Made by a program: the position numbers and the translations under genes
Shown: piece by piece, positions 6,842 to 60,719 of the stretch
Layout of the letters: each line of letters opens with the position of its first letter
How positions within the stretch are numbered: the stretch's first letter is position 1
Source: Octopus vulgaris
Lineage: Eukaryota
Assembly: GCA_951406725.2 (NCBI GenBank)
Contig: OX597815.1
Location: forward strand, 57,412,001 to 57,476,000
Direction: 5' to 3'
DNA length: 64,000 nt
Notes under the pieces: model-generated
What the model was told of the DNA's origin: nothing
The model's input: the letters and a program-made list of their open reading frames with translations, nothing else
The model's database searches: none

Positions 6842-6895
6842 TTTGTCAAAATTTAATTTTCGTCGCTCTGAGACTGTGATCTGTTCACTGATAAA
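6842..6895 (-). ncRNA. Hammerhead-ribozyme-like motif with variant G3:C8 core (partly decayed)
   Basis: Minus: TTTATCA-GTGAACA-GATCAC-loop-GCGAC-GAAAAT-TAA-ATTT-TGACAAA; stems I, II and III are recognisable, with mismatches in stems I and II. Confidence 0.45.
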
Positions 6896-7520
6896 GCTTC
6901 GTGCTGCATCTCATATATATATACATACATACATACATACATAAATGCATATATATGTATGTGTGTGTGTGTATGAATATCTGTGTGTGTGTGTAAATAC
7001 ATGACAAAGCTATATATAAACACACTCTCAAATTGCATTTGTATCACAGCTATTATTCTCACTTCACCTCTCTTTACCACTTCCTCTCACTCATTGCTAT
7101 TACTTTCTCTCACTCCTGCCTACTGCATGATTTTGGACAAAAAAAATATATATATATTTATATAATACAAATAAGAAAACGGAGAAACAATCTAGTTGGT
7201 TCATCAGCTTTCGGATATTAGAATGTTGACTTATTTATTTATTTAACAAAAACAAGAACCTTAATAGCGTACATATACACATTATAATTCAATACTTTTA
7301 AGATAAGAATACAATTATAAAAATCATAATATAAATTATTGAAAGCATTAAATCACTCCTTACAGCTGTTTCAGCATATAAACACACACACAAATATATG
7401 AAAATACTACACTCATTATTATATTAGATTAGTTTAGTGTGTGTCTTTATGTTTGTGTTTGTCCCACTTCACCATCTGACAACCAGTGTTGGTTTATTTA
7501 CATCCCTTTAAGTACTCGAT

Positions 7521-7565
<45 letters not shown>

Positions 7566-8171
7566 TTATGAAAATAAACAGCAGAAAACTCCTCACAAAA
7601 TGGGTTTTCTGCTGCTCTAGATAATGTAAAATGTAGGTGTGTATTACTGGGTCACAGCTATTGAATATTATCCCTCTAACACCTAGATACTCTTCATATC
7701 ATAGTGCTGAATATAATATTTGAACTCATGATTTTTGTAGTCCAGTAATATAACCACTCTACAGAGTGCATTTTATATCAAATAAGATGACATGTAAACA
7801 CCAACTACAGGAGCTAAAACAGCATCTAACTTGTAAACAGTATCTGCAGGAGCTGAAAAAAGATGAGTCCATTGTCTTATTAAAAAAGATTGTGTCTTTA
7901 CTGTGGTGCATGCTGAAAACCTCCTGTTACTTTGTTGACATAGAACTACAGTAAAAGTATATCAAAGAAAAATTTTAAATTAGTAATTATTCTGAGTCTC
8001 TTAATCAAGAAGCTGTATTGCCTCTTGATCAAGTGTCATCAAGAGGCCTACTTAAATCTTTATGAAAAGGGGCATTGTGCTGATATGTTTATTCGGTTAG
8101 AAACTTACTTTTAAAAGAAACCTGATAATTTTCATACAATTTCAATTTATGTTTTTTTTCTTCATTTACAG

Positions 8172-8198
8172 GTTTCTGATGAAGACATGAACCTCTGA
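8172..8198 (+). CDS. MAP3K4: MAP3K4 terminal coding exon (VSDEDMNL*)
   Basis: Strong acceptor ttttttttcttcatttacag; a phase-0 join gives HPFPK|VSDEDMNL*, paralleling recalled human HSFVK|VCTDEE*; candidate AATAAA at 8612. Confidence 0.75.
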   Translation, partial: VSDEDMNL

Positions 8199-8969
8199 GC
8201 GCATTACTACTAAAACCTTTTTGAGAGACAGTGGATATGAGAAAAAGTAACAGATCCTTGATAATAATTTTTATGATTGATAGGAAAGACAAATGAAAAT
8301 TGGGAGAGAATCATGTTTTTGTAATGTCCATTTAGTGACATCTAAATTAAAACTTGTTCCAATTACTTCTTATATTTAAAAATTTCTTAGGAATTTTTAG
8401 ATAATATTTGGAATCTGCTCCACAGTGATATGTTGGTTAAATGCAACATGTATTTGGCATATGTCTTCATGGAAAAAATGCTTTTCAAAATATTCCTTTT
8501 CATTTCAAAACATGACTAAGATACTTCTCTGTTTTAGAGAAATGTAATATAAATTAACTTTCTTCTTTTCTTTTTTTTTTTTTTTTGATGGGGTGAGAAA
8601 TTTATTATTATAATAAATTTAAATATATAAAATGAAAAAAAATTACCACCACATTTCTTTTCTAGTGAACTAACTTATGATCCTAAGAGAGATGACCTGG
8701 ACAAATGAATCAGAATTGTCAAAAAAACAAAGAAAGGACTTTGTAATTGAATCTTTACCAGAATCTAAAAATATAGGCAAATACACAGGCATACAGTTCT
8801 AAATGATTTTAGGTTTACTATTTATATATAGGTGCAGGTAAGAAGCTTGCTTCTCAACCACATGGTTATGAGTTCAGTCCCATTGCATGGCACTTTGGAC
8901 AAGTGTTTTCTGTTGTCTCAGGCCAACAAAAGCCTTGTGAGTGTATTTGGCAGACAGAAACTGAAAGCC

Positions 8970-9660
8970 CATGCCAAAACAGATAACAGAACATGGCATA
9001 GCCTTCTGGCTTGCCGGCTCTTTTCAAAGCATCCGCCCCATGCAAGTATGGAAAACAGTTGTTAAATGTTGTTGTTGTTGATGATGATAATGATCAACTT
9101 TATCTGAGTATGCTAATGTCCTATCTGATCATTTTAATTATTGGTAACTTCCTCTTTCCCACACGTATTCCATACAATGGCTCCAATAAATACAAGGAAT
9201 AAAATGGATAAGGAGAATCATACATTAAAGTCATAGATAATGGTCTCACAGTATTGGGTGATAATTACCTAAGTACAGTATGGGCAGGTAATATGTACAT
9301 ATAATTTCATAAAGATATAGGATTATAACCATGTTAAAATGGTTAGCCAACATACAATGGAAAATATAGGAATCCAAGGTATTCATCTTATAGATCAGGC
9401 TTGCTTGGCACAATTAGAAGTAGCACAACAGTAGCTAAGCAAATAATGAACAATAAAGGTGAGGTTTGTGGGAAGGAGGAAGTTACCAATAATTAAAATG
9501 ATCAGATAGGACATTAGCATACTCAGATAGAGTTGATCATTATCATCATCAACAACAACAACATTTAACAACTGTTTTTCATACTTGCATGTGGCGGATG
9601 CTTTGACAAGAGCTGGCAAACCAGAAGGCTATGCCATGTTCTGTTATCTGTTTTGGCATG
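8970..9660. repeat. Inverted repeat, ~194-bp arms (8970-9163 / 9467-9660)
   Basis: Arms are near-identical reverse complements; mirrored ORFs 9011+ and 9395- give nearly the same peptide. Confidence 0.9.
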
Positions 9661-10214
9661 TTTTCTATGGCTAGATGCCCTCCCTAGCGCTAACCACTTC
9701 ACAGAGTGTACTGGGTACATTTTTCATGGTACCAGTACCAGTAGGATCAGCAAGTAACTTGCAAAATAAGACAAAGGTCCCTTGACTAGAGGGAGTAGTT
9801 GATGAGAGGTTAAAAGAATAATAGGTGTCTTGCTGTAGAAGCAATACAAGGCTATTCTAGCTGGAGAAAGCAGAAGGAGACTTGGAGAGAAAGGTAGAGA
9901 TAAAGAGAGTGAAAGAGATGGTGGCTGATATGTGTCTGGACAAACCCTCAAGTTGCAGTGGGGAAGAATAATAGGTGAAGAGATACAAAGGATTGGACTG
10001 GTTAAGGTGATAGAAGGGAAAATTTCATAAGAATGTAAGGAGAGATGGCAAGATGGGCTATAGGTGTCTGTAGTAATTGAAGGTGAGGAGTGTAGGAGAG
10101 TTTCAGGGGAAGAGGGTTATGTTAGATATGTGTGGGCATTGGGAGAGATAAGGGATGAAAGAGGTGTAAGGATGGATGGAGTATAGTAGAGAAAAGAGAG
10201 CATCGCTAGAGAAA

Positions 10215-12030
10215 GATAACACATTTGGGAATTTTTTTTTTATATTCTTATGTGATCTTACATATTCTTGGGTTGCTGATTTTAAATATCAAAATCATCA
10301 CATAAGGATTTTCAATAAAATATAAATTAATGATAATAAAAGATGTGAATTTTTAGTAAATCGTTTCTTTATTAAAATGAAGCAAATAATCATGGAAAAG
10401 TATATTCTGTTAGTTTTAAGTATATATGTATTCCAAATCAACATGAAATGAATCTTGAATCATCAACATCAAATCAAAGGAATGTAAAAAAAATATGTTC
10501 CTAATGGTTAGCCTATATATTGATCCAAAGGAAGGAGGACCTCTTTGAATTCTGCTTGTGCTGTGCATCCGGACCATCATCTTTCAATGAGCAGCAGTAA
10601 TTTGCCATCATACTGACATTCAATTTGCCCTGATATCAGGCTTCCACTCCCCTTGTTCCTCACTGTAGTTACCACAATTCTTGAGAAAATAGTCAAGATG
10701 TGGTGCAAAAAGTGCAAATTGACACTCATTCTAGACCCAAGTTGTTGGAAATTTCAAATCAGTTCTTGGATCATTTTTCATATTTTGGGAAGCAGCTGTT
10801 TTCCAGGAAGTTTTAAACAATCTGCTTGGAGAAAATCAGGCATTCACCTTGACATCTGCTAGTGCTTCCTCAAAATGCTTTGAATCCAGGTGCTTGAAAG
10901 CAGCTCTATTCTTGTTCAGGTCCTTCACAAAATTTTTCATAAGTCCTAATTTGATGTGGAGGGGTGACAGCAGAATTTTCATGGAGTCAGCTAGTGGTAC
11001 AGCTATCATGTTGTGATTTCCAGGTAAGAAGCTGGTCCTTGGTGGCCAGTTTATAGTGCTGACTGTCTGCCCTACTACCCCAAAAACAAAAGAATCAGAA
11101 ATACTTGGTGTATCCCCCTTGAAGCAATGACTTTTAAATCACTAAAAATGGGAAAATGTGATTATGTTACTTGATGGCAGTTATTAGTGCCTTTATATTT
11201 TCATAGGTTTCTAGCATTTGGACACTATGACCAATTGGTTCAGTTGCAGCTGTGTTGCCATTGTAGAGAAGACCACCCTTTGAACTTCTGTTAGAACCAA
11301 AGAAGAGCCTTCATTCATCTGCCTTGTATGATATCCCAATGTGTTCAATAGGGCCTGAAATAGTTGAACAGAAAAATAAAGAATCCAATTTCTCAAAGAA
11401 CTGAGTGAATTTTACTTCACAATGATGGTACCAAGTAAATGTTGTTCCACAAGACTGTCTTCCTTCAGTCTAGAGCCAAGTGCACTTTCATTTGGAAGGT
11501 TGTCTCTCATTAACTCAATGAGCTCAACTTGGTTGAAGAGTTCGGGATTGTCATTTCTTGGTGGTTCATAGTCTACCTCCATCACATTAGTATTACTAGT
11601 ATCAGTCTCTGATGAAATCACCAATGTCTCAGGTGGTACAGGTACAGGAATATCATCTGAGTGTGGGGCAGGCCTTATTGCAATCCTTGGTCTTCTTGTT
11701 GAATGCAGCTACTTTAGTCATACAGAAGTAGTAGTCATGGTGGTTCATCTGCTCCTGCCATACTATTGGTACTCCAAAGGGCATACATTTCAGTTTTCCA
11801 ACTGACCATATTTTGAGCTTACTAATGAAACTCTTGCTAGCTTTGTGAGGTGCAGATGGATTGTCCTGGTCTTCCAGTTTGCAACCAAAATAAGCTAAAT
11901 GGCAGCTCTTCAAAAAAAGATTAATATTACTCCAGGTATCTGAAAGGAGCCTCTAGACAAAGAAAAATATATTCGATTTAATATTTAAGTCAATATAGAA
12001 TAAGTATTTTTATTGAAGATATACTTTATC
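10215..12030 (-). mobile_element. Degenerate DNA transposon, probably Chapaev3 (CMC) type
   Basis: Minus-strand fragments AYFGCKLEDQDNPSAPH...MPFGVPIVWQE...DYYFC and ILLSPLHIKLGLMKNFVKDL; many stops and frameshifts; family name from memory. Confidence 0.6.
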
Positions 12031-12516
12031 ATTTACAAAAAGAAAAAAGTAATGTTTCTGGACAACTTGAGAACTTGATGTGTTGGAGATCAATAAAAAA
12101 CACCACGAATCACCACTTATCATATATATTTCAAAAAAGATACCATACAGACAATAAAAAGAATCTTGCAGACCAGTGTAATCAGGAATGGAAGTGGTTT
12201 TAGGATGGGGGAGCAATTAAGATTATTACAATTTTAGAAGAGTAGTATTTACAGTATATGTGGAATTGATTGCAAGTTTCAAAGAAAGAGTGAAAGAATA
12301 ATAAATTTATGACAAAAGAATAAAAGCTTTGAGTCCTAAATTCTTCTTAGTACACCAATATCCACAATACATTAGTTATTTGGAATGTGCAGGTAAGACA
12401 TGCTTTATTTCATACAACCAATTGTCTCATCACCATAAGCAAATTTTATTGAACTGTTGTCTTTGTAACTCAAAATTTCATACTTTTATAAAGTAATCTG
12501 AACAAAATTTACAATA

Positions 12517-13930
12517 GGCGCAGGAGAGGCTTTGTGGTAAGTAGCTTGCTTACCAGCCACATGGTTCTGGGTTCAGTCCCACTGCATGGCACCTTGGGCA
12601 AGTGCCTTCTACTATAGCCTTGGGCCAACCAAAGCCTTGTAAGTGGATTTGGTAGACGGAAACTGAAAGAAGCCCATCGTATGTATATATATACAAACTT
12701 CTGCCACATTCCAGGGAGAAAAACTAGAAATAGTTGATAGCTTCCGTTACCTAGGTGACCAAGTCAGTAGCGGGGGCGGGTGTGCTGGAAGTTTAACTGC
12801 TAGAGTAAGAATAGCTTGGGCAAAGTTCAGAGAGCTCTTACCTCTGCTGGTGACAAAAGGCCTCTCGCTCAGAGTAAAAGGCAGACTGTATGATGCGTGT
12901 ATACGAACAGCCATGCTACATGGCAGTGAAACATGGGCCGTGACTGCTGAGGATATGCGTAAGCTCACAAGAAATGAAGCCAGTATGCTCCAATGGATGT
13001 GTAATGTCAGTGTTCATACTTGAGAGAAAAGTTGGACCTAAGAAGCATCAGTTGTGGTGTGCAAGAGAGACGTTTGCGCTGGTATGGTCATGTGGCGAGA
13101 ATGGATGAAGATAGTTGTGTGAAAAAGTGCCACACCCTGGCGGATGTGGGAACCTGTGGAAGAGGCAGACCCAGGAAAACCTGGGACGAGGTGGTGAAGC
13201 ATGACCTTCGAACACTGAGGAAATGACTAGAGACCGAGACTTTTGGAAGTATGCTGTGCTTGAGAAGACCCGGCAGGACAAGTGAGACCATAACCCGTGG
13301 CCACTTATGCATACCTTTCCTTCTTGGGACACAAAACTCTGCTTGTGAAGACCTGTTGAGGCAAGTGAGAATCAAAATCGATCAACATCAATGGAAATTG
13401 CAGGTGCGATACCAGTGCCGGTGGCACGTAAGAGAACCATCCGATCGTGGCCGTTGCCAGTGCCACCCCAACTGGCCTCGTGCCGGTGGCACATAAATTG
13501 CACCATCCGATCGTGGCTGTTTGCCAGCCTCGTCTGGCCCCTGTGCGGGTGGCACGTAAGAAGCACCCACTACACTCACGGAGTGGTTGGTGTTAGGAAG
13601 GGCATCCAACCATAGAAACATTGCCAGATCAGACTGGGCCTGGTGCAGCCTTCTGGCTTCCCAGACCCCAGTTGAACCGTCCAACCCATGCTAGCATGGA
13701 AAGTGGATGCTAAATGATGATGATGATGATGATGATATATATATATGTGTGTGTGTGTGTATGTTTGTGTGTCTGTTTGTCTCAATCACCATTGCTTGAC
13801 AACTGATGGTGGCGTGTCTAGGTCCCCATAACTTAGAGGTTTGGCAAAAGAGACTGATAGAATAAGTACTAGGCTTACAAAGACTAAGTCCTGTAGTCAA
13901 ATGACTGAAACAAATAAAACAATAAAAGAA
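12517..13930 (+). mobile_element. tRNA-SINE split by an RTE insertion (head 12517-12690, tail ~13745-13930)
   Basis: Head and tail are contiguous in intact copies (50833-51222, 58588-58973). Confidence 0.75.
12709..13735 (+). mobile_element. 5'-truncated RTE LINE (RT C-terminus plus 3' UTR)
   Basis: Colinear with 24531-25790; LRWYGHVARM...GRGRPRKTW; ends in (ATG)n. Confidence 0.9.
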
Positions 13931-14179
13931 TGAAATACAGCCATGGAAATCTTGGGCGTAAGAAATTATTGTAACACTGAATTTCTTTCCCAAATATGGT
14001 TGATAAGAAGAGGAAGAATAGCAGCAGTAGCAACAACAGCAGCATCACCATGCACACCGACAGAAGAATTAAGGAGGGAGCAGAGGAGAACACTAACACC
14101 GCTACTACCATTGTCATCATGAGGACCAACTAGAGTAACAAAAATAAGCAGGAAAGTGAAGAGAAAGAAAAAAGAATTC

Positions 14180-16760
14180 TTTCATGTGAAATACCAGCAG
14201 ATTTCACTACCACTGCCACCAACATATCAAACAAAGAAAGAGAAAAGATTATTAAAGCAACAATGGTCATTTTCTTCTCAGCAAACATAAAGTGGATTTG
14301 CCAAAATGTGCCACAGAACAGAAGAGATGTCAGAAAATGCCTTGGCTAGAGCAAAAATGCATGTAACAAGAATGGCAGGACAGTACACTTGAACACACCA
14401 GAGAAGGTGCAGAAAGAGATATGGCAGAGGACAATAATATACATGCAAGATATAATATACATGCAATAATATACATGAAAATGCAAGATAAAAAGTGCCA
14501 CACAGGCTTAGGTTGAAAAATGCTTGAGACCTGTATGGAACATAAAATGGTATATTGTACATGGTAAAGCCTTGGCACAGTAGCAGTGAGGTTTTCAACC
14601 GAACAACTGGCCAAGAAAATGCCATGACAACTCTGAAGACCAAGGAATTACATATGATTCTCAAGTATCTCAGTCAAAGAGTTTTTAGAGTGAAGGTAGC
14701 AGAGGTGACACCAGAAGTGGACATCTCCTTATTAGCAGTGTTATATACAGCATAGAGGGGAAATGTAAAATTAGTGAAACACAAAAAGGAAAATTGGTGT
14801 AGTGCTGGGATAGAAATCTTATGGCATGCAGATTTCACAACTGCGCAAGAGATTCCAGATCTCAACAAGCTCCCTGGAGGTTCAAAGTTATTTGTAGCAG
14901 TAGAGAGCAAAAGGCTCAGATACCACATTTGTGGTCAAACAAACCACTTAAAGACTTTCTGCCCTAGACAAATAAAATTGTACTGCTGCAGACACGTCCA
15001 GCACCACAGAACAGCAACAACAACAGTACCAGCAGAGGCAGGTGGCCCCTGGAACAACAAAAACAATAGCAACATCAATCACAGTAGCACTGACAGCAGC
15101 AGCAGCAACATCAACAATAACAACAGCAGAATAACTACAGCAAACAAAACAAAAGCACTCAGAGAACACAAACCACCTCCAAGATAATACCAACATCCTC
15201 TCAACGATTAGCCACAGAGGATTTTTAAAATGAGAATATCTGAAATGAACTCAACTGCTCTCACAAACAACAATACTAAAAATGAACCTGACCACTCTCA
15301 AAAATTAAGTAAAAAAAAAAAAAGTAATCCAGAATCTTTGTCTGATACCAGATCGATCCCAAAATCTAATCAGTCCATGCCAGTTGCAAGGCCAAACCTC
15401 CCTGAAAGTTTCATCAGAATCTATCCAGCAGTTCTTGAGATATCTTGTCCACAGACAAACAAACAAACAAACATGAATGAAAACTACCTCTGCCTTAGTG
15501 AAGGCAGAGGTAATAAATAAGTCAACATTTATGCTTTGCACACACAAAACAGCAACAAAAGCAACATCATCAGTATCCCTCAAACCTACAACAACCTTAC
15601 CAACAAAGCACAACCAAAAAGCCCAAGATTTGCCTCAACCCTACCCCTGAACACTCAGGAGGAAAGGCCTAAATGGCAATTAGTCACCAGATTTAATTGA
15701 GAAAAAGGAACAAAAATTCACCAACTAAAACACAAAAATGTGACAGGTATGATGACAATGAGAAGACACAACAAAACAAATACACAGCAACCACTATAGG
15801 CACCCTCAACAACTACAACACCCCATCAGCACTGTCTCCACCACCTCAAGCACAACCTAGTTCACACACAACCCAACACCAGCAACACACAATCATTAAC
15901 TACTCAGTAATAAACAAAAATAATACAGAATTAATGGCACACATATACGACCATTCAAACATCACAAAAACCAATTTCATCACACCATCAAACATCACAC
16001 CACCACACATAAAATTCCTGCTAACATCACAAAACACATGCAACAAAATAAAAACAAAATACCCTGAAGGAGTTAGGGCCTTCAGGAAAGATATCAACAA
16101 AAGACAATGTTCCTGGGGAGACCCTGGGTGTCAACAAGAATGAGTTGGCTGGTCTGTTCCAGAGAACTTTCAGGCAGGTCCTATGGATAATTTCCAGAAA
16201 TCCTTGGCCTGACAGTGCTACTGGGTGGGCATTGACTGCTTGAGATAAACTCTACAAGCAAGGAAGTGCAGTCAGTCAGGCTTGCAGAGTGACAAAAGCT
16301 TTCTGCATGCTCTCGTCCAGTGCCTGAGTATTTCTAACTTGTGGGTTTATGTCAAAGACCTGCTGTTGCATGTAGGACAAATCCAGCTATCGGCTGAGTC
16401 TATTGTGAGGATAGTCCTGTCACTTTCCTTTGGATAGTGAGGGTGGAGAAGGAAGTTCTCCCAGCAATTTTGTTAAAAGGTGGGTGAATGTTGCAAGAAT
16501 GACCTAAGTGAATGGGCTCAGTCTAAGCATACACCTGTAGACAAAGTGGAAAGGGCACTTACACTGATAGTCAGAACTGTTGTGGAATTTTGGGGTTTTC
16601 ATGAGCAGTTTTAAGAGGTCTCCCTCTTTTGAAGAATCTTGTTATACTCAATTGTTGTTTTTGTTTTTCATGTAACCCCACATTATATTTCTCCTAATGC
16701 TTTTTATATGTAAATCCTTAGTGTTTAAGAAAGAAATCATTATCATTATTATTATTATTT
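14180..16760 (+). mobile_element. Degenerate Tx1/L1-like LINE (ORF1 remnant with zinc knuckle; ORF2 3' end)
   Basis: xHICGQTNHLKTFCP knuckle at ~14920; 16100-16740 resembles 30900-31720; (ATT)n tail. Confidence 0.55.
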
Positions 16761-18660: not shown

Positions 18661-19271
18661 TCATGGAAGCATGGTGGAACCATCTAATAATGGCTCCATT
18701 CGTAAGGCTGGAATAATATATATAATGTGTCAGTTGGAAAAAGACAGAGACACAACCAGGTTGAAGGTTTAAGAGAATTTATTGATATGTTAACATGTAT
18801 CTGTGTGTGTATCATGTATACATGACTGGCCATCATGAGAACAAAGTGTATGTGTCTATAGGAATGGATATATGCATGTGCATTAAGTACATACAAAAAT
18901 AACAATGAAGGAGAAAGTGAAAGAGTCTATGATGAGAAGTTAGACAGATGTTCATAGACACAAGAATGAGAAATACCAGTCCATAATCAATTGTGCACGG
19001 TGATTGAAATACTGTATCAAGAAGTTGCAGCAATGATGCAGAGCTGGAGTTGCAGTATGTATCGTATGAAGTGGTGGGAGTAATGCTGCTGCCTGGGTCA
19101 CTTGGTACAGGAGTTCTCACAGGTTGTATATTTGGTCTTAACCATGGTGAAGTAATTCATGAACAGTGCTGTTGTAGTGGATGAGTGTATGTATTAATAA
19201 ATACATAAGTTGTTTTGTGATAATATAGAGATTTATTTCCACTACATCAATTTGTAAGCAATGCTACGCAT

Positions 19272-42366: not shown

Positions 42367-42462
42367 ATCCAAACATGAAAACACAAAGAGAAAACACAAC
42401 AACGCGAGGATGTGGAACAAGTATAGTGTTATTGGACGCTCAGGAAAGAAAAGAAAGGAGGA

Positions 42463-42495
42463 TTTAACGTTTCGAGTGGAGCTCTTCGTCAGAAA
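42463..42495 (-). ncRNA. Minimal type-I hammerhead ribozyme motif in a Penelope-like terminal repeat (~42362-42538)
   Basis: Minus: TTT-CTGACGA-A-GAG-CTCCA-CTC-GAAAC-GTT-AAA; palindromic AACGTT stem III. Confidence 0.6.
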
Positions 42496-42534
42496 CATAG
42501 GAAAAGGAAAGATCCAAGGAAGGGAAGATGGAGG

Positions 42535-42572
<38 letters not shown>

Positions 42573-48332: not shown

Positions 48333-48334
<2 letters not shown>

Positions 48335-48560
48335 TCATCATCATCATTTAACGTCTGTTTTACATGCTAGCATGGGTTGGGTGGTTTGACTGGGGATTGG
48401 CAAGCCAGGAGGCTGCACCAGGCTCCAATCTGATTTGGCAGTGTTTCTACAGCTGAATCCCATTCCTAGTGCCAACTACTCTGAGTGTGTAGTGGGTGCT
48501 TTTTAAATGCCACCAGCACAGGAGCCAGTCAGGCAGCACTGGCATCAGCCAAGTTTGGTT
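48333..48560 (-). mobile_element. RTE-tail-type SINE/LINE 3' fragment
   Basis: (cat)n tail plus catgctagcatgggttgg module; short related copies at 48724-48790 (+) and 60101-60250 (-). Confidence 0.7.
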
Positions 48561-48757
48561 TTATACTTTTTGAAATCTAGTTATAAGTATATATAATAAA
48601 ATTTTTTTTAAAATTATATATATATAATATTTGTTATTTATGTATTGGTTTATGTCTATCACTGTTCGAGTTGCATAATAGTAGTTTTATCTCTAATTCA
48701 TATTTGATATATATATATATATGCAACCCATGCTAGCATGGAAAGCGGACGTTAAAC

Positions 48758-48790
<33 letters not shown>

Positions 48791-49111
48791 AGAATATATA
48801 AATAATACATAGAATTCAGGATAAAATCACATTAATGATTATATCAAGTGGCCAGCAGCAAACCTTGTAGGTAATTTTATATACTAAATTAATAATTATA
48901 TTAAAGGGATCAGGAGAAAGCTTTCTTGTACATGCTGAATGTAAATATCAAAGGCTCTAAAAAGCCATTGTATAACTCCTATAAAACCAGTGTTTTGTAG
49001 TAGTCATATAGAGGTCTTTTAGTGCCTTTGGCGTCTCTTTCAGCATGTAGGAGAAGATTTTTTTCCTTGCTCTCTTTAATATAATTATATATATAACATA
49101 TATATGAATGT

Positions 49112-49164
<53 letters not shown>

Positions 49165-49592
49165 TAAATACATATATATATATGTATACATAATCAAGGT
49201 GCAGAAAGTGCATACTCCGAATGAACAAGGTAATGTAATCCGATTGTAGAAAGAATTCTGCACATTAGGTACATACATATATACAGATTTATATATATAT
49301 ATATCATCATATAATATCTGTTGTCCATGCTGGCATAAGTTGGATGGTCTGACCAGGGCTGGCAAGCTCAAAGAATGCATCAGATTCCATATATATATAT
49401 AGATATATCTTTTAAATTCTTTTATGGTAATGTTAAGGATATGCAAATAAGGCTCCTATTTCATTATGTTGGCTAGTGTTTGATGATACTAATGGGTCAG
49501 TTTTTCAGGGTTGCTGCATGGTTATACTGATATAATGTAGAATAAATATAATAATAACAATAATTCTAGGATGGAATTTATGAATATCTAAT

Positions 49593-49729
49593 GCATCGTT
49601 ACGCGCGTTTCCACAAATGATACGACTTTAATATCAAAGTCTGTATCCTTGGGATGATTACAGTATAGATTGTAGTATCTGTGGGCATCCAGTTGATCAT
49701 CATCATTGATTCATTTCATCAGGCAATAC
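49593..49729 (-). ncRNA. Hammerhead-like motif with greatly extended stem II, inside a Penelope-like inverted repeat
   Basis: Minus: GTATTGC-CTGATGA-(~105 nt)-GAAAC-GCGC-GTA-ACGATGC. Confidence 0.5.
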
Positions 49730-50444
49730 TAAATATGTTGCATATGCCTTGAAGAAATCCTGGAAATAATCACACCCAGGGAAAATGTGATAGACAGTGA
49801 GATGATCATATCATGTAAACATAAGAACAAGATATTATCATGGAATTTGAAAAAATATTTTGAAACAAAGTAACAAATTATAGAACAGATAAGGAACCTA
49901 AACAAATAAATGAACATACCAATGTTTAAGATGATGCACACTATAACAACAGAAACAGTGAAAAAGTCACCATAAGAGGGTAGTATTAATCAATTCAGTC
50001 AACAAACCCCATTGTGCAGCAGCTGTTGGGTTCAGAATTTACTGAGGAAAGTCACATCTTCAATGAAATAGTACAAAGAAATGTACTACTATTTGCTGAA
50101 TGAATGACTATCCTTAAAATCTGCAGAATGAATAGAAAATAAATCCAACACCACAACACCCACACCTCCATCTCCATATTACTACCATTCCTTCCTCTAC
50201 ACCCATCATCAACCTCCCCCTACCAAGTACACACAGAGATTGGCCTTCATACTGGCAAGAAGGGATAAACATCCCACTCTGATTCATTTCATGAGGCGAT
50301 ACTATATGAATCTCTGATTCATGTAGTATCGCCTCATGATACTGTAATCATCCCAAGGATACAGACTTTGATGTTAAAGTCATGTGATTTGTGGAATTCC
50401 TAGAATTATTGTTACTATATATATATAATATATATATTATATAT

Positions 50445-51222
50445 GTGCAGGAATGGCTGTGTGGTAAGTGGCTTGTTTACCAACCACATGGTTCCGGGTT
50501 CAGTCCCACTGCGTGGCATCTTGGGCAAGTGTCTTCTGCTATAGCCCCGGGCCGACCAATGCCCGTGAGTGGATTTTGGCAGATGGAAACTGAAAGAAGC
50601 CTGTCGTATATATGTATATATATATATGTATGTGTATATGTTTGTGTCTGTGTTTGTCCCCCTAGCATTGCTTGACAACCGATGCTGGTGTGTTTACGTC
50701 CCCGTCACTTAGCGGTTCGGCAAGAGACCGATACTGGGCTTACAAAGAATAAGTCCCGGGGTCGATTTGCTCGACTAAAGGCGGTGCTCCAGCATGGCCG
50801 CAGTCAAATGACTGAAACAAGTAAAAGAGTAATAGGAGTGGCTGTGTGGTAAGTAGCTTGCTAACCAACCACATGGTTCCGGGTTCAGTCCCACTGCGTG
50901 GCATCTTGGGCAAGTGTCTTCTGCTATAGCCCCGGGCCAACCAATGCCTTGTGAGTGGATTTGGCAGACAGAAACTGAAAGAAGCCTGTCGTATATATGT
51001 ATGTGTGTGTTTGTGTATCTATGTTTGTCCCCCTAGCATTGCTTGACAACCGATGCTGGTGTGTTTACGTCCCCGTCACTTAGTGGTTCGGCAAAAAGAG
51101 ACCGATAGAATAAGTACTGGGCTTACAAAGAATAAGTCCCGGGGTCAATTTACTCGACTAAAGGCGGTGCTCCAGCATGGCCTCAGTCAAATGACTGAAA
51201 CAAGTAAAAGAGTAAAGAGTAA
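50445..51222 (+). mobile_element. Two head-to-tail full-length tRNA-SINE copies (50445-50830, 50833-51222)
   Basis: Near-identical units sharing variants (ggcatcttggg, gtcactt, agtcccgggg). Confidence 0.88.
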
Positions 51223-52935
51223 AAGTACATATATATATATATATGTATGTATATATATATATATATATATATTTATTTAGAGCTGCATATTACTCTACCT
51301 TTGGTATTTGAGTACTATTTTTTCCACCTTGTTTTGCATTTATGCACTTACTTGTGTGTGTATCAAAATCATCATGATCATCATTTAAACATCCACGTAT
51401 CCTTGCTTGCATGAGTTAGACAGTTTATTGAGGCAGAATTTTTACAATCAGATGTCTTTCCTATCGCAAACCTTTACCTGTTTCCAAGTAAGGTAATATT
51501 TCCCCACAGCCAAACGTGTTTCCATAGAATACTGGAAATGGATGACACTGTTTCTATGACAGTGACACTTGTTTACAACTACAATATGATGTCTAGACAA
51601 GAACACAAACATATACACACTCACACATCTCAAGCTATAGATACATATATGATGGGATGCTTTCATTTTCTGTCAATCAAATCCACCCACAAAGCTGTGG
51701 TTGGCCTGGGGCTACAGTAGAAGACACTTGCCCAAGATGTCATTGCAGTGCGAGTGAACCCGAAACCATGTGGTTGGGAAGCATAGAGCCACATACACAT
51801 ACAAATGCACACCCCTATATGCATATACATATAAAAACAAAACAAAATAATGAGTATTACAATTACAGCTGAGTATTCTAAGCCAGAATTACCAGGACAC
51901 ACTGACAGATACAGCCCATACAACCAAATTTTATTCACATGACTTGGGCCAACCCAAGCATATGGTAAAAGTGGCAGAGCACTGAGATTAAACCCAGGAC
52001 GTAGTGATAGAGAAGCAAAGTTCTTACCCATTTGGCCACCCACACACATCTGTGTAACTTTCATTACAACACTAATGGATCTTAATAAATCTAAATGGAA
52101 ACAGTAACAGACAGCTAAGTTGGCCGTGTTAAGGTGTTGGACAATTAGCAATTCATATATCAGCAGCATTGCATTGCATATATATAATATTTCTTTATAT
52201 ATAACCATAGCTCGGTCCACTTCGCTGTAAACTGTATACCACAGGTAATTATAACTCCTGGCTTAAAGCAACAGAAATGCTGTATAAGTGCTTCTAATTT
52301 AGGCATAAGGCCAGCAATTTTAGGGTAAAAGAGTTAAGTCAGTTATATCAACCCCTGGTACTTCACTGGTACTTATTTCCTGGATAGATGAAAGACAAAG
52401 TTGACCTCTGTGACCCTAAGTTGACCCAGGACATAAAGAACCAGAAGAAATACCACAAGGCATTTTGTTCCATGATTCTGCTAAATGACAGCCAATGGCA
52501 TGCTGTGAAATATTTCCTTAGTATGTAGTGCAGAGTTCAAATCAGAGCAAAAGTATAACCTATAGAACACAGGTTTCTTAAGTGGGTATCAGTGCTTTTT
52601 AAGTGGGGAGTGGGGTTAATGAAGGTGTTGCTGGGTCGTTACGGTTGTTGAATTTATTGTTATAAATAGCAATAGCATTGTCAGATACACCCTCCTGGGT
52701 AATGTCATAGGGTTGAAGGTGAGACGGGTGACAGGGGGTTACAATGGATGAGATTTATGTTTCAGAATTCCTTGTGCAAAGGACTGGGTTCTGTTAATGT
52801 TACCTCGCTTAAATACATCACATGGAAATGAAGCTTTTAGTGATGTATAAATGACTCAACATCACAATCTTAGTTGCTTTGCCTTGTATAGGATCTAGAA
52901 ACTGAGTCTTAAAGGAAGTGTCATGTATTTTTCAG

Positions 52936-53715
52936 TTAGTTTGATTTCATTTTGTTTTCTAAGGTAGGATTTATAATTACGAGTTCAGAACCTTCGATTT
53001 TGACCTCTTCGTAAAGCCAGGGTCGTTCACAGCGACATTCCGTACCGCATTTCTCCGAGCCACATTTCAGGCAAGGGAAGTGACAGCCGGGACAATCCAT
53101 ATCCAAACAGTCACACATATCTATACCCGTAGATATCAAACATCCGGACTCATCGTACATTTGCCACTCATTGCACTTCTTCCGCTTCCTTTTCTTTTTT
53201 TTAGTCGCTTTGAAGCGAGCAGAGGATTTCATGGTGGGAATAGCTTTAGTTCTTGTCACAGCTTTAGAAGACGTTGTCACTGAACGACCATTTCTCCCAC
53301 CCGATCTAGTAGTTACCGCCAGAGCGTTCTCGTTTTTCATAGTTTCATTTGCCCTCGTTACCGAACTACCATCAGTACTGTTCTTATCGAGGGTTTTCTC
53401 GTCAGAAGAACAAGTTTTATTGTTTATCGAAGGAGGTCGTCGTTTTTTCCGGTCATATTTTTCTGTTAGATTAACATCCTTCACATCTGTCGTCTTGAAC
53501 CCTTCATTTACCTCTTTCTTCCCGCCATCAACACCTTCATTTATGTTGGTGTCTTGTCGATACTGGCGCCGTGAAGCCCTAGTAACCATCATTTTCCTTC
53601 GGGAATTATCACCTCCCCCATCACCACTTTCATCATCATCATCATCACCACCAGACTCACTTTGTAATTCTTTGCCGTCTTTTTTTTCCGAACTCGTATC
53701 TGCCGCTTTCATCAT
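52936..53715 (-). CDS. ARL14EP: ARL14 effector protein-like (C11orf46/ARF7EP), 259 aa, single coding exon
   Basis: C-terminal YDESG...DMCDCLDMDCPGCHFPCLKCGSEKCGTECRCERPWLYEEVKIEG is the Cys-rich ARF7EP_C domain. In-frame TAATAA lies just upstream of the ATG, and a splice acceptor ttcttttctacag lies 24 nt upstream. Confidence 0.9.
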   Translation of the reverse strand: MMKAADTSSEKKDGKELQSESGGDDDDDESGDGGGDNSRRKMMVTRASRRQYRQDTNINEGVDGGKKEVNEGFKTTDVKDVNLTEKYDRKKRRPPSINNKTCSSDEKTLDKNSTDGSSVTRANETMKNENALAVTTRSGGRNGRSVTTSSKAVTRTKAIPTMKSSARFKATKKKKRKRKKCNEWQMYDESGCLISTGIDMCDCLDMDCPGCHFPCLKCGSEKCGTECRCERPWLYEEVKIEGSELVIINPTLENKMKSN

Positions 53716-54807
53716 CTTTCTTGCAAACTGTTTTTATTACTGTAGAAAAGAAGTTGTGCCTTTGACATTTGTCACTCTACTAAAACAGTTAGTGTAATTA
53801 CCATTAATTAACATTAAACAGTTTGTTTTCAAGATATTTCCAACTTCAGGCAGCAAAACAGAGAAGAAATTATTGGATGTATAATGATATTCTAAGTTAT
53901 CGATGTCCTTTAATTATTGTCAGTTTTTTATTGTTGCTCTTCCCAAAAGTTAAATCACGATTGTTTCTTGCTGGTTTTGTTTTGTGTGTATATATATATC
54001 GTTTAAATATTTGTATATACTGACAATAAATTGAATCGAGGTGAACGGCAAAGTAACTTTGAATGTAGGTTGATGAGAAACAAGGAAGAAAACTAAATAG
54101 TTTTTTTTTTCAACTTGGCAAGTTGTAAGTTGACATGTGGAACGTGGAAGTTAAAATAATGACTTCATCATCAAAGAAAAAATTATAAGCAACTCACAAC
54201 TGCTATTCTGTAATGAAATGATTAAAGCGTCCCATTCAGTACTAAAATATATGTATATACCGATATCTCAATATATTTCTAATAAATCTAAATCTAACGA
54301 TAAATCGGATATGTAGTGGTAAATGGGTTCCAACCAAGATTTATCTTTCTTGTATAAATGTTTATGTAACTCTCCTCAGCATGGCGAAGTGAGGTAAATT
54401 TACTTCAAACACAACTAGGTCTGGCGATTATGGCTGTTTATTATTGTGTATTTCCAGACACTCCTTTAATAAATCCTGTTTGTTGATGCTTGAGATATAA
54501 AGGATAGAAGTGAGGTCAACTCGTCAGTTTGATAAAGCGGCACTTCTCCAATTAAATGACATGCAATGAATAAAAGAGGAATCTATTTTTAAATATTTTA
54601 TCCTAAAAAATAAAACAGAAACGGGAAGCGGGCACTCGTAATATATAAACAAACATGTCGGACGATACAAGGGGCGATAATTTACTTCTACAATAAGGTA
54701 TTATAAATGATGCGAGAGGCCCGACAATATCGTCTGCGAATTGTAAGAAGACCGTTTCACAATCATTAATAAATCTCTGAACGAGATATAAATAGTAACC
54801 GCTCAAC

Positions 54808-55306
54808 AACGTAAAGTGTACTAGCCATCTGAATGTGGCTAGCCACTGGGGGTGGAGTGTTACTGACGCTTTTAGCCCCAGGAGATCGACGTCACCAGCT
54901 GGCCTTAGACACAATTTCAGTGCCCTTGTGTTATTTGCAAAGGGAGGTCATCCTCCCTCGAAAACCTAAGTGATACATACGGACTATAGTTTAATGCTTT
55001 CAGACAGTTTTTCTAAATCAGTGACTGTGGTTGCTGTGAAAAACGTTAAATATTATTATTTGCAAAGGTCTCCTTCATCGAAAACCGGTGTCTACCATGC
55101 GTTGACGAGAGCAATTACCTTGAAATTACCTCCGTATGTATCACTTAGGTTTTCGAGGGAGGATGACCTCCCTTTGCAAATAACACAAGGGCACTGAAAT
55201 TGTGTCTAAGGCCAGCTGGTGACGTTGATCTCCTGGGGCTAAAAGCGTCAGTAACACCCCACCCCCAGTGGCTAGCCACATTCAGATGGCTAGTACACTT
55301 TACGTT
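54808..55306. repeat. Inverted repeat, ~176-bp arms (54808-54983 / 55131-55306)
   Basis: Near-perfect reverse complements (about 2 mismatches seen). Confidence 0.92.
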
Positions 55307-55449
55307 TCACAATCTGTTTCTTGAAAAACAAAAATAAAAATTACAAAACTTGCATATGTCTTGAACATATTTACTGTATTGTTTTATAATCATTTCTGTC
55401 GTATATCACAGTATCATAAAATGGGCGAAGGTAAGCGTGCGCACACCAC

Positions 55450-55609
55450 CTAACCCTAAACCTAATCCTAACTCTAAACTTAAGTAACCTTAACCCTAAT
55501 CCTAACCATAACACTTAGCCATAACCCAGACCCTAATCCTAACCCTAACACTAACCTTAACCCTAACTCTAACCCTAACCCTAACACTAACCCTAGCCCT
55601 AACCCTAAC
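55450..55609. repeat. Degenerate (CCCTAA)n interstitial telomere-like tract
   Basis: ~26 hexamers of ccctaa/cctaac variants. Confidence 0.8.
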
Positions 55610-55679
55610 GAGTGTGCACTGTAGAAAAATCTGATTAAAAACAATCAAGAATTTGCAAACGATATTGTTGGATCCTTCG

Positions 55680-56540
55680 TATAATAATCATCATGATGGC
55701 TTGGCTTCGCGAACGAAGATCAGGAAGGCTGTCCACGTCGTGTGCATGCACGCTCATGTCTGACAAGTCCAATATAGGAAAGGCAGGTCCGTGAGCAGTG
55801 TCCACAGACGAAGGTAACATCTAATGTGATGTCAGAGGCGGCTCGCGCCTTCTGCCTGCGTCTTTTGTCTTTAAGTGCGTCTCTTCTTTGTTCCTCAAAC
55901 TTGCTGACTGCGTTGAAGATTGTGTGGCATCAGACATCATGGTCCGCAGCCAGATCTGACCAGCATTGGTGGTCAATATGACATGCTGTTAGAGACTTCT
56001 TGAGGCAATCTTTGTAGTGCTTCCTTGGAGCTCCTCTCACACAGTGGCCGGTGAAGAGTTCGCCAAATAGGGCAATCTTAGGAAGGTGATGGTTCTCCAT
56101 TCTAGAGACATGCCCTACCCATCGGAGGTAGGACTTCAGTAGCATGGCTTCAATGCTGGGGATCTCGGCCTGCTCCAGGACTTCAATGCTTGTGACGAAG
56201 TCACACCCGTGTATGTTGAGGATGGTGCAAAGACATCGCTGGTGGAAGTGCTCAAGGAGACGGATGTGACTGCTGTAAGTGATCCAGGTCTCTGAGCTGT
56301 AGACACTGATCTTTGTTTTATTCTTCAGGTTATTATTGTGCCAAACACGTTTGTACAATCTGCCAAAGGACCTATTTGCCTTAGAGAGTCTATTTTCAAT
56401 TTCTTTGTCAATCCTTGCATTGACGGAAATGATGCAGCCCAGGTATGTAAACTGCTGTGTTGATTTCTGTTCAGTACCGCAGATAGTGATGTGGGGTGGG
56501 CGGTATTCCTCTTAGGGTGTAGGTTGGTGAAGTACCTACC
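55680..56540 (-). mobile_element. RTE (BovB-like) LINE 3' fragment
   Basis: TKISVY..SETW..LEHFHQRCL..LRWVGHVSRMENHHLPKIALFGEL. Confidence 0.82.
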
Positions 56541-57439
56541 TGATTAATAATAATAATACCTGATTGGTAAAAGTAGATTACCACCCCTTCTATCGTCCAA
56601 AATGTTTGTAGGAGTAAACAACCGTATGTAAGAAGTTGGTGACAAATGACTCCTTTTTAACACCGCACGGTCGTCCCTAACATAATAAGAGAAGCCAAAT
56701 ACATGGATATAAAATACAGTGCCAAAGGAATAAATGAGGACCACAAACCGTTCCACTGTTTGAGAGAGAAGAAGACTTTATTCACAATGTGTACAGAGAG
56801 AGAGTGTGTGAGTGCTAGCAAAGTGTTGTGTCTGAATGCGTGCGCATAGTATTTGTGTCTGTGTGTTCATGTATGCGACAGATACAAATAAGGTGAATGC
56901 GTATAACAGAAATACAGAATACAGAGCATAAGATAAGTCTCAGCATATTGAGTTAAGATAGAGTTAGTTTACCAGTTCATAAGGTACACAATAGTAAGTT
57001 CTATAACAAGATGTTGTGGGTCAAGTGGCAGAGCCGGTTACTACCCATGTAGAAGTTGTGGCTATCATGCCGTGCCAAGTCTTTTGATATAGTAAGTTCT
57101 TTAGGTAGACTGTTTTTCCGTGGTGAAAGATTCACACAAACAGTGTGAGTTAAACTTGGTCGAGTTGATGTGTACATGTTGTTGAAACTACTATGTACAC
57201 ATAAAAAACAAAAAATAGTTAAAATATCTTCACAGTATATAATGGTGGCAAGTTTTACATCATCTGAAAAGTCATTAGTTGAACTATTAATCCTCTTGCA
57301 TTCTGGTGGTGTTTTGGAGTGTTTGAGTGACATTAAACCCCAACAAATGCCCATAAATTAAATGCATCTATCTGGGCCATGATTGTGACCTGTCAAACGG
57401 TGTCTGATGGCCATGATCGTGACCCATCATGCTTTATGT

Positions 57440-57644
57440 GCTTAGCAGAATTGTTAGCATGGTGGGCAAAATGCTTAGTGCTATTTTGTCTGTCTGCACA
57501 TTCTAAGTTCAAATTCCACTGAAGTCGACCTTGCCTTTCATCCTTTCAGGGTCAATAAATTAAGTACCAGTGAAACATTGGGGTCAATGTAATCGACTAG
57601 TTCCCTTCTCCCAAATTGCAGGCCTTGTGCCTATTGTAAAAAGG

Positions 57645-57727
<83 letters not shown>

Positions 57728-57960
57728 AGTGGCGAGCTGGCAGAATTATTAGCACACTGGGCTAGATGTTTAGCTGCATTTTGTCTGCCACTACATTCTG
57801 AGTTCAAATTCGGTCGAGGTTGACTTTGCCTTTCATCCTTTTAGGGTCGATGAATTAAATACCAGTTACTCACTAGAGTTGACGTAATTGACTAGCCTCT
57901 TAACCTGCAAATTTGAGGCCTTGTGCCTATGGCAGAAAGGATTATTATTATTATTATTCT
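57440..57960 (+). mobile_element. Two tandem Nin-domain-like SINEs separated by (ATT)n
   Basis: gagttcaaattc B-box and gcctttcatcct...gggtcgat motif in both; a third copy at ~59015-59170. Confidence 0.7.
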
Positions 57961-58495
57961 ATGTTTGACTTTTGCTTTACATTTGCACAAGCTGGCTCCA
58001 AGTCTCACCCATAGAACTCAAGAGACAACAAGCTGGAAGTTCATGTTGGTGTTATGCCTAGGGTGCCATATATTTGGTTTTGTACTTAGTGTTGTACTAG
58101 TGAATGCCTAAAGAAACCATACGAAAATTATGTTTGTTTTAAAACTTAGATTACAAAGAAAGTATTTTGCGTAGGATATGAGCAGTTCCCATGAGCACTA
58201 TCTTTTGAATTTCTGCCATTTTAGGGTTTCCTGGTATCTGAGTTAGGTAGCAATCAGCCCCTTTTGCTATCATTCCCAGGGCACCTATGACAACAGGTAT
58301 TGTTTTAGTCTTCAGGTTCCACATTTTGCTGATTTCTATTTCCAGATCTTTATATTCGCTCAGTTTCTGGTAGGTCTTGACAGATACGTTTATATCGATT
58401 GGGACAGTCATATCAATGAGGAAGCATGTTTTTTGTCTGAAGTCTTTTACTATGATGTCTGGCCTATTTGCGTCTATCTTTGTGTCAGTTTGTCA
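57960..58495 (-). mobile_element. R4/Dong LINE 3' end (REL domain)
   Basis: RPDIIVKD...LIDMTVPIDINVSVK...KLSEYKDLEIEI...PVVIGALG...QKIVLMGTAHILRK. Confidence 0.82.
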
Positions 58496-58587
58496 GTTAT
58501 TATTAATATTATTATTATTATTATTATTATTATTGTTATCATTATTATTATTATCATTATTATCATTATTATTATTATTAATATTAT

Positions 58588-58973
58588 AGGCGTAGGAGTG
58601 GCTGTGTGGTAAGTAGCTTGCTTATGAACCACATGGTTCTGGGTTCAGTCCCACCTTGGGCAAGTATCTTCTACTATAGCCTTGGGCCAACAAAAGCCTT
58701 GTGAGTGGATTTGGCAGACAGAAACTGAAAGAAGCCTGTCGTATATATGTATATATGTGTGTGTGTATATGCTTGTGTGTCTGTGTTTGTCCCCCCAACA
58801 TCGCTTGGCAACCGATGCTGGTATATTTACGTCCCCATAACTTAGCTGTTCGGCAAAAGAGACTGATAGAATAAGTACTAGGCTTACAAAGAATAAGTCC
58901 TGGGGTCAATTTGCTCGACTAAAGGCGTTGCTCTAGCATGGCCACAGTCAAATGACTGAAACAAGTAAAAGAG
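58588..58973 (+). mobile_element. Full-length tRNA-SINE
   Basis: Same family as 50833-51222. Confidence 0.85.
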
Positions 58974-59541
58974 TATTATGATCACCATTATCATCACTAT
59001 TATTATTAGATTTAAGTTGGTAAGCTGGCAAAATTGTTAGCACACTAGGTGAAATGCTTAGCAGCATTTCATTTGTCCTTACATTCTCAGTAAAAATACT
59101 GCAATGGTTAACTTTGCCTTTTTTCTGTTTGGGATCAATAAAATAAGTACTAATTGAGCACTGGGGACCACCTTTTTTCCTATCAGCCAAATGTCTTCAA
59201 TACAAAAGAGCTGGAGCAAAACATTTTCAATCAGTCACGTCTGATGAGTATTTAATTGATCTCCCATTGTAGGGAGGGTGAATCATTCATGAAACTACCC
59301 AGTACTCTGTAAAGTGGTTGGTGTTAGAAAGGGCATCCAGCTGTGGAAACCATGCCAAAACAGATGACTGGAGTCTGGTGCAGCCCCTGGCCATACCAGC
59401 TTCCATCATGCCATCCAGCCTATGACAACATGAAAAACAGATCTTTTATCTTTTGTCGTTTATATATATATATATATATATATATTGAGAAAGAAAAGTA
59501 CTCAGAATTTTGGGAAAAAAATCCTTTAATTTCTTCATTAT

Positions 59542-59580
59542 TATTAAAGCTTTCGTTCCTCCCTAGAACTTGTCAAATAC
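59542..59580 (-). ncRNA. Minimal hammerhead-like motif with U3:A8 core
   Basis: Minus: TAT-TTGACAA-GTTC-TAGGGAG-GAAC-GAAAGCTTTA-ATA; weak stems I and III. Confidence 0.35.
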
Positions 59581-59589
59581 CTCTTAGAT

Positions 59590-60050
59590 GACATAAAGTC
59601 ACACAATTTGGGAATCATAGCCATAAGTGAGACTAGACTCCATAATCCACAGGCCCGAAAGTCCATGTTTGGTGAACAGTTTAACATTTATTTTCCTCCC
59701 TGTCTGCTGAGGATGGGAGGTAGTGGCACTGCAGTACTTTTTCGTAAGAGTCTGGATCTCGAAGTAAAGATGAAATTCATAGACCTGGAGGGTAGACTGG
59801 TTGTCCTGGATGTCGTCGACAGCAATGGATGTGCTTTTCAATTCCTATCAGTCTATGCACCACCTTTAACAGGTTGGCTGGATTTCTTTCGATGTCTAGA
59901 AGTATTCCTAGGAACGTCTCATCCTTTACTTTTAGTGGGGTATTGGAATGCTACGTTGGACACACATCTAGACCACATGGGCAGAGACAGGAATAGATGG
60001 GGATGCAAATACCTCAGAAACCTGATCAGATACTTTCAACTAGTATGCAT
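59590..60050 (+). mobile_element. Tx1/L1-like APE endonuclease fragment
   Basis: IIAISETRL...GTAVLF...DLEGRLVVLDV...SVYAP...LVGYWNA. Confidence 0.75.
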
Positions 60051-60248
60051 GTAATTATTGCAAATATATAAAAAATATATGTGTGTGTGTTTGTATATAT
60101 CATCATCATCAACATCATCATCGTTTAACGTCCGTTCTCCATGCTAGCATGGGTTGGACGGTTCGACCGGGGATCTGGGAAGCCAGAAGGCTGCACCAGG
60201 CTCCAGTCTTATCTGGCAATGTTTCTACAGCTGGATGCCCTTCCTAAC

Positions 60249-60295
<47 letters not shown>

Positions 60296-60482
60296 GTCTT
60301 GTGGGATGTCTTGTTGGCGAAGTATGTGTTAGTGATGCACAGGTTATGGTATGTGCAAAATTCAAGTAGTCTCTGACCATTGTCATTCATGTTGCCAATA
60401 CCAAAACACATACACTTACATATATACATACATATATATACGATTGATTTGTTTCAGTTCCTGTCTACGAAATCCATATATA

Positions 60483-60719
60483 TATATAATATAATTCGAG
60501 ACAAAACCACTATTTTAAAATCAAACAAGGAAAGACTTAATCAATACATAAAATTTGATACTGATTAGAAGATCGAAAATCCACCTGAAGAATGTCGGTA
60601 GCAGACATGAAACAATTGTAGTGGCGGTTTATTTAATTTATATTAAAATTTTATGTATTGATTAAGTCTTTCCTTGTTTGATTTTAAAATAGTGGTTTTG
60701 TCTCGAATTATATTATATA
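60483..60719. repeat. Perfect ~74-bp inverted repeat (60483-60556 / 60646-60719), Penelope pseudo-LTR-like
   Basis: Exact reverse complements flanking a hammerhead motif. Confidence 0.88.
60581..60624 (+). ncRNA. Type-I hammerhead ribozyme, canonical core
   Basis: CCAC-CTGAAGA-ATGTC-GGTAGCA-GACAT-GAAAC-AATT-GTA-GTGG; all three stems pair and cleavage is predicted after A60620. Confidence 0.8.

Follow-up and report, generated by a model that had tools for sequence, protein, structure and literature searches.

Does a stretch of octopus DNA that carries several hammerhead-like motifs, two of them with an unusual tertiary pair, hold the ends of ribozyme-bearing mobile families, or only damaged copies of ordinary ones? 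The window analyzed here is a 64,000-nt stretch of the Octopus vulgaris genome (contig OX597815.1, positions 57,412,001 to 57,476,000, forward strand). A first-pass annotation had proposed five hammerhead cores with unrelated flanks in it: CUGAAGA at 60585 (+), CUGACGA at 42492 (-), CUGAUGA at 49722 (-), GUGAACA at 6888 (-) and UUGACAA at 59576 (-). All five were verified at these positions and strands, and each core belongs to a separate repeat family with at least 40 scored matches in the genome. The families of 42492, 49722 and 60585 are all C3:G8, that of 6888 is G3:C8 and that of 59576 is U3:A8. We consider it probable that the five motifs are the hammerhead ends of five high-copy families, two of them Penelope-like and three likely so, and that G3:C8 and U3:A8 are fixed compensatory pairs at 3:8 with a predicted slow self-cleavage, likely dimeric or protein-aided.

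The proposal that GUGAACA is a family consensus with conserved stems was borne out, as all 30 aligned loci have G3 and 29 of them also have C8. A 35-letter pattern with positions 3 and 8 left free gave 1,898 exact matches in the genome and 0 in the control; the first 100 listed comprise 96 with G3/C8, three with G3/T8, one with T3/C8 and none with C3/G8. The family form shows a stem I of 7 bp, GUGAACA, one inserted G, a stem II of 5 bp, GAAA, a palindromic AAUAUU stem III and U17. Stems I (7 bp) and II (5 bp) form in the minimum-energy fold of two natural copies. A second subfamily, missed by the 35-letter pattern, has a different loop II with identical core and stems. The rest of the core (U4, G5, A6, A9, G12-A15.1, U16.1, H17) is kept across the subfamilies that differ in their loops, and no conserved loop II tertiary contact between them was evident by eye.

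A Penelope-type origin had been suggested for this family, and a coding parent with reverse transcriptase (RT) and GIY-YIG domains confirms it. Shared upstream sequence gave no parent in 63 loci and none in 100 listed 5' ends. The true upstream sequence was revealed by the loose ends of reads and contigs; it is exact in 180 copies, one of which leads to a GIY-YIG frame whose protein has at least 150 matches in the genome. Among the best 30 loci of this open reading frame (ORF), the ribozyme lies 1.0-1.5 kb 3' of the ORF in 25 (24 GUGAACA and one GUGAAGA); of the other five, four stop short of the ribozyme position and one was unscored. The search of these loci tolerated four mismatches, therefore a C3:G8 form would have shown up. 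The open frames of the parent run for 646-1,025 codons, and the frame with RT and C-terminal GIY-YIG is about 1,100 codons long. Pfam recognizes the GIY-YIG domain (E=1.8e-5), and the RT was identified from its motifs and from weak matches to PF00078-bearing proteins. At the junction in locus L284 the order is 3' untranslated region, ribozyme, an ATG about 90 nt past G3 and the ORF, with an early stop in the L284 frame. The downstream sequence of L182 and L183, considered as a host repeat, turned out to be the true ORF start. The features of endonuclease-containing (EN+) Penelope-like elements are thus present: a single RT/GIY-YIG ORF, a pseudo-long-terminal-repeat (pseudo-LTR) before (L284) and after the ORF (25/30), an inverted partner, one tail and a (TA)n target. 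The compact CX2-5CxxC linker of the parent matches that in the Nematis rows of Fig. S2 of PMC8557442 (a motif comparison, no tree), and a young subfamily retains 96-100% identity across 634 nt. The G3:C8 ribozyme is thus carried by the pseudo-LTR of a Penelope element that is young and Nematis-like.

The majority of G3:C8 copies are non-coding and measure about 200-215 nt, with a sharply defined 5' end at -24 and a 3' end close to either +125 or +190. Of 37 short copies (a set that counts one row twice and contains a duplicated pair), 25 have an extra 5' G; the corresponding template position is C or T in all 32 cases. Immediately upstream of the sharp 5' end (e.g. L284:5690-5720) there is a branch-point-like CTAAC, a pyrimidine run and YAG (CAG or TAG by subfamily), which may represent either an initiator or the acceptor of the intron described in other Penelope elements. 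An inverted partner together with exactly one tail was seen at 20 of 30 unselected loci; eight of these 20 are one composite repeat. This young repeat (about 98% identical, >1.5 kb) carries an inverted pair of G3:C8 ends (L126, L135-L137, L145, L150-L152, L154 and L155), so the counts for the family are inflated by it. Its start resembles what we take to be a Helitron-type terminus.

UUGACAA was also proposed as a family consensus, and indeed all 30 loci, from 28 distinct places, have U3/A8, as do 17 of the 19 exact matches. This family is older, with about 88% identity. In L122, U3:A8 cores at 4929 and 1207 flank a broken RT with Penelope-type motifs, a long CxxC linker and GIY-YIG frames (Pfam GIY-YIG E=0.0045, under the Pfam cut-off). 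Motif comparison, without a tree, thus points to a decayed Neptune-like element as the owner of the U3:A8 ribozyme. Other abundant U3:A8 families, unrelated to that of 59576, were also observed; their commonest core is UUGAAAA, with the same inserted G and 5-bp stem II (first 100 rows on C1; L334-L347), and 14 loci yielded no coding parent for them. U3:A8 units form a tandem array at C1:8134351-8135463, repeating about every 361 bp.

Relatives of the G3:C8 parent carry other pairs on a similar scaffold. In L333, 370 nt behind an endonuclease (EN) remnant homologous to the parent (EN remnants 38-54% identical), there is a hammerhead with the same four core-proximal stem I pairs and nearly the same stem II, but with C3:G8. 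A sister family with 58% protein identity to the parent is C3:G8 too, with A-U replacing G-C in stem II. By the descriptor, three of 18 metagenome relatives have C3:G8 3' of the ORF and one has U3:A8. Another two were recognized there by eye: in L312 a C3:G8 motif carrying U15.1-A16.1, in L313 a U3:A8 motif carrying C9. The 3:8 pair therefore covaries in the clade of the G3:C8 parent. G3:C8 is documented for one lineage and one other copy; the latter (L330:4632, minus strand, G000:C1:12071835-12071869) has the core GUGACCA and a different stem II, and was seen once. The L310 sister (G000:C19:14370000-14379999, cores 5930 and 1343, minus strand) shows 58% protein identity to the parent, open frames of about 1,311 codons and a head-to-tail period of about 4.59 kb; A9 is replaced by C9 and stem I is broken, and its copies are 99% identical. 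The older relatives L331 and L348 have A9 and a stem I better paired than in L310.

We also counted the 3:8 states beyond these families. In a 484-kb sample (the window plus 42 ten-kb stretches, compared with shuffles), the descriptor picked out 12 motifs that have A9 and in which 3 and 8 form a Watson-Crick pair (5 C:G, 5 U:A, 2 G:C, 0 A:U) vs 0.7 in the shuffles, three of the 12 being window motifs. Motifs with a non-pair at 3:8 numbered 5 vs 1.4. The same genome pattern form was run for the four pairings with two controls each, and forward-strand counts are given because reverse-strand rows repeat sites. C:G gave 13,663 matches (controls 1,246 and 921), U:A 8,059 (3,698 and 2,592) and G:C 5,203 (1,096 and 854), whereas A:U gave 1,386 vs 2,323 and 1,847, that is, no excess. 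A3:U8 was therefore rejected as a real class; its single recurring match is without hammerhead stems. Once the controls are roughly subtracted, non-C:G cores make up about two fifths of the excess. The pattern requires the inserted base and G10.1-C11.1 and so omits the 59576, 49722 and 60585 families, and the 6888 family makes up 88 of the first 100 G:C rows listed. Descriptors built on CUGANGA overlook thousands of such motifs per genome. It is possible, although we hold it with more doubt than confidence, that a family mobile at present uses a natural G3:C8, known until now as a laboratory rescue mutant, as a slowed ribozyme, that its clade ran C:G, U:A and G:C on one scaffold and that, with about two fifths of pattern-matching hammerheads being non-CUGANGA, animal censuses undercount greatly.

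The motifs of the window and the elements that contain them are as follows.

6708..6912, minus strand: short copy (about 205 nt) from the G3:C8 Penelope-like family, consisting of pseudo-LTR and tail and bordered by (TA)n-type repeats; it starts with the extra G typical of most short copies.
6842..6895, minus strand: G3:C8 minimal type I hammerhead, decayed copy, with G3 at 6888 and the predicted cut between 6849 and 6848.
42370..42537, minus strand: 5'-truncated copy of a C3:G8 repeat with (TA)n flanks; no coding parent found.
42463..42495, minus strand: C3:G8 minimal hammerhead CUGACGA with an inserted A, a stem II of 3-4 bp, an AACGUU palindrome and a short stem I, in agreement with its family.
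49591..49735, minus strand: C3:G8 hammerhead in which a domain of about 105 nt separates CUGAUGA from GAAA, with the palindrome ACGCGCGU; stem I is damaged in this copy, and no coding parent was found.
59484..59580, minus strand: 5'-truncated end of the U3:A8 Neptune-like family, terminating in (TA)n.
59542..59580, minus strand: U3:A8 minimal hammerhead with U3 at 59576, a stem II of 4 bp, the family palindrome AGCGCU, A17 and a core-proximal stem I of 3 bp.
60483..60556, minus strand: incomplete copy of the 60585 element in inverted orientation, lacking the tail and 100% identical.
60550..60800, plus strand: young C3:G8 element with a one-sided tail; best-scoring copies 97-99% identical, no coding parent found.
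60581..60624, plus strand: C3:G8 hammerhead CUGAAGA with a stem I of 4 bp, a stem II of 5 bp and the palindrome ACAAUUGU, in agreement with its family.

All five families share the core N3-U-G-A-N-N8-A with a Watson-Crick 3:8 pair, G-A-A-A and U-H. The CUGANGA (C3:G8) identity is present in three of them and absent from the 6888 and 59576 families; in published variants it is the pairing of 3 with 8 that is required, and not the identity of the letters. Stems I and II and a short palindromic stem III surround the core, weakly so in the U3:A8 family. The layout described by the first-pass annotation, a stem II region followed by GAAA and a short stem III, needs correction on two points. At 49722 the "stem II region" measures about 105 nt, a family trait and not a peculiarity of the copy, and the copies at 6888, 49722 and 59576 are damaged compared with their own families. 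The 6888 copy has G>A in stem I, G10.1>A and three extra stem III bases, and no hammerhead fold is predicted for it; the 59576 copy is broken off about 5 nt ahead of the core, and its stem III is unlike that of the family. A strict structural descriptor recovered three of the five motifs (60585, 42492 and 59576), the other two failing because 6888 is decayed and the helix II domain of 49722 is very long. No hammerhead match was obtained in an Rfam scan of the window at E<=1, nor with an intact G3:C8 copy against the Rfam hammerhead models at E<=10, a test that does not discriminate because the canonical motifs of the window were missed as well.

For the three C3:G8 families, 60 loci contained no parent ORF within 1.5 kb. 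The 60585 element has an inverted partner and a one-sided tail. By such insertion hallmarks these three families are likely Penelope-like. The claim that the motifs lie in Penelope-type remnants is therefore secure for the two families with coding parents and becomes, for the three C3:G8 ones, an assignment by insertion structure. In the 49722 family stem I is formed by 6 bp, a bulge and 4 bp, the helix II domain of about 105 nt (window 49612-49715, minus strand) opens with an A-G mismatch, and an inverted 58-nt piece of it occurs at 50339-50396, 600 nt off.

The following comparisons concern the available parts of the cited papers. Minimal type I hammerheads are known from metazoan Penelope pseudo-LTRs, with many families per genome (Cervera and de la Pena 2014, PMC4209133), and U3-A8 has been published for the Cercyon elements of Schistosoma, with about 1,300 hits (PMC4209133). 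The octopus motifs resemble these hammerheads in being type I with a short stem I, an extra nucleotide between 9 and 10.1, G10.1-C11.1 and a short palindromic stem III, and in occurring mostly as solo or inverted copies. They differ in the helix II domain of about 105 nt in the 49722 family and in G3:C8, which is fixed here in a young long-ORF family and is not reported in the available part of PMC4209133. As in the EN+ elements Nematis and Neptune (Craig et al. 2021, PMC8557442), we found a C-terminal GIY-YIG domain, a CX2-5CxxC linker, (TA)n targets, inverted truncated copies and a one-sided tail. By motifs only, without a tree, the linker of the G3:C8 parent is of the compact Nematis type, whereas that of the U3:A8 parent has the long Neptune-type spacer. 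The hammerheads of both groups are treated as canonical in what is available of PMC8557442, but the octopus G3:C8 and U3:A8 are not. Natural 3:8 covariation with variant cores that are still active was described by Perreault et al. 2011 (PMC3088659), whose accessible text names only U3-A8 as a natural covariation.

The closest functional comparison is with the Poseidon element PAc of Anolis carolinensis (PMC11167929). It and the octopus element both have a hammerhead where the ORF begins, a tail defined by two internal priming sites, AT-rich targets and an uncut RNA template, and both lack RNA-seq ends at the cut site, but the octopus element has the CX2-5CxxC linker and an ATG downstream of the ribozyme. 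In PAc a C3G/G8C double mutation partly restored cleavage, so that the engineered rescue mutant of one element is the natural state of the other (PMC11167929). C3G/G8C also partly rescues hammerheads in general (PMC8495972), and a G3-C8 variant was less active with C17 than with G17 (PMC3884650); the octopus family has U17. No natural G3-C8 family was found in the full-text literature available, including PMC6765202, PMC6155905 and PMC10085705; as Lunse et al. 2017, figures and supplement file 1 of PMC4209133 fall outside this scope, priority for natural G3-C8 is uncertain. The repertoire itself is ordinary for a Penelope-rich animal, and what is new is that a young coding family has G3:C8 as its fixed core, next to homologues with C3:G8.

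How such a family might propagate can be sketched as follows. Transcription would start at -23 and the extra 5' G would be a copied cap, which is preferred over a spliced origin of this G because no recurring first exon was present in 100 ends. The enzyme of the element would nick AT-rich DNA and prime inside the RNA, as does that of the anole element in the accessible part of PMC11167929, and two internal priming sites would produce the two 3' ends. Priming at the first pseudo-LTR would give the thousands of 200-215-nt copies, and priming at the last one the long truncated copies. Since the cut site lies inside the short copies, these would have been made from uncut RNA, and cleavage would then be a slow side step, not required for insertion. 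When it occurs, after U17, it might remove the capped leader ahead of the ATG, or split or trim tandem transcripts.

Penelope hammerheads cut poorly in vitro, they were not needed for insertion in the sole reconstituted system and their role is debated. Several observations weigh against G3:C8 and U3:A8 as selected, active pairs. RNA reads (one unstranded run, organism label C, 6% read, several hundred-fold coverage) showed no end pile-up and none at the cut site, although this type of library may not show it. In the predicted monomer G3 pairs with U17, which lengthens stem I and could be an inactive state, and the predicted dimers of the G3:C8 copies are without the palindromic stem III. The inserted copies span the cut site; three of 136 matches start between +25 and +50, a count biased by the choice of loci with core-bearing queries. 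The start-site and cap reading is unproven because the 5' end also reads as a splice acceptor, and in the 59576 family the core-proximal stem I has only 3 bp. The near-identity inside the young family needs no selection. No G3:C8 was found in the 18 metagenome relatives, and with good documentation for just one G3:C8 lineage, the swap may have happened only once. Finally, an intact ribozyme may be dispensable, because the very young C9 sister with a broken stem I amplifies.

The alternative that gains most from these points is that the G3:C8 motif is a hammerhead relic without cleavage, its fold kept as a protein-binding or structural element or as a passenger in a successful family. The reads without ends at the cut site, the copies spanning it, the degenerate motif of the young sister family and the ability of G3 to pair with U17 are all in its favor, as is the unimpaired insertion in vitro of hammerhead mutants of the anole element (available part of PMC11167929). 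We nevertheless regard it as unlikely, since the two changes are exactly compensatory, the rest of the core is kept across subfamilies with different loops and the large excess in the genome is limited to the 3:8 states that pair. From this exact compensation and otherwise complete core, together with the partial C3G/G8C rescue elsewhere, activity is predicted. A family-wide compensatory swap in a young element beside homologues with the usual pair argues for selection on an active fold, and a natural mutant-and-rescue series with a matching near-complete protein is at hand for a direct test.

A much less probable alternative is that the short copies are non-autonomous retrozymes, or resemble short interspersed elements, and spread via circular RNA instead of being by-products of the autonomous element. 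Their length of about 200-215 nt, fixed 5' end and lack of coding sequence would suit it, and animal retrozymes have been proposed as Penelope derivatives (available part of bioRxiv 10.64898/2026.07.22.740005). However, the 5' end of the autonomous element and the short copies are colinear, and the latter stop within the ORF start, at the two priming sites of that element; nor do they begin at the cut site, unlike the monomer of a self-cleaved circle. No head-to-tail arrays of the short G3:C8 unit were present among the loci examined. A tandem pair at C1:6.25 Mb proved to be a segmental duplication instead, and so did L226. A tandem retrozyme arrangement was shown for none of the five families. 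That GUGAACA and UUGACAA are chance decay of CUGANGA copies or AT-rich look-alikes has next to no chance of being right: the window copies at 6888 and 59576 are damaged and receive no Rfam score, but the variants are the family state, in thousands (G3:C8) and tens (U3:A8) of exact copies, and occupy the pseudo-LTR position of RT/GIY-YIG elements, which refutes this reading.

The G3:C8 family, which we read as the end of a Penelope-like element with a fixed compensatory pair, was also met beside other coding sequence. At L156:1270-1932 and 7464-8010 there are two tandemly duplicated intronless frames, each adjoining a G3:C8 insertion on the opposite strand; from their motifs these frames presumably encode a dCMP deaminase.

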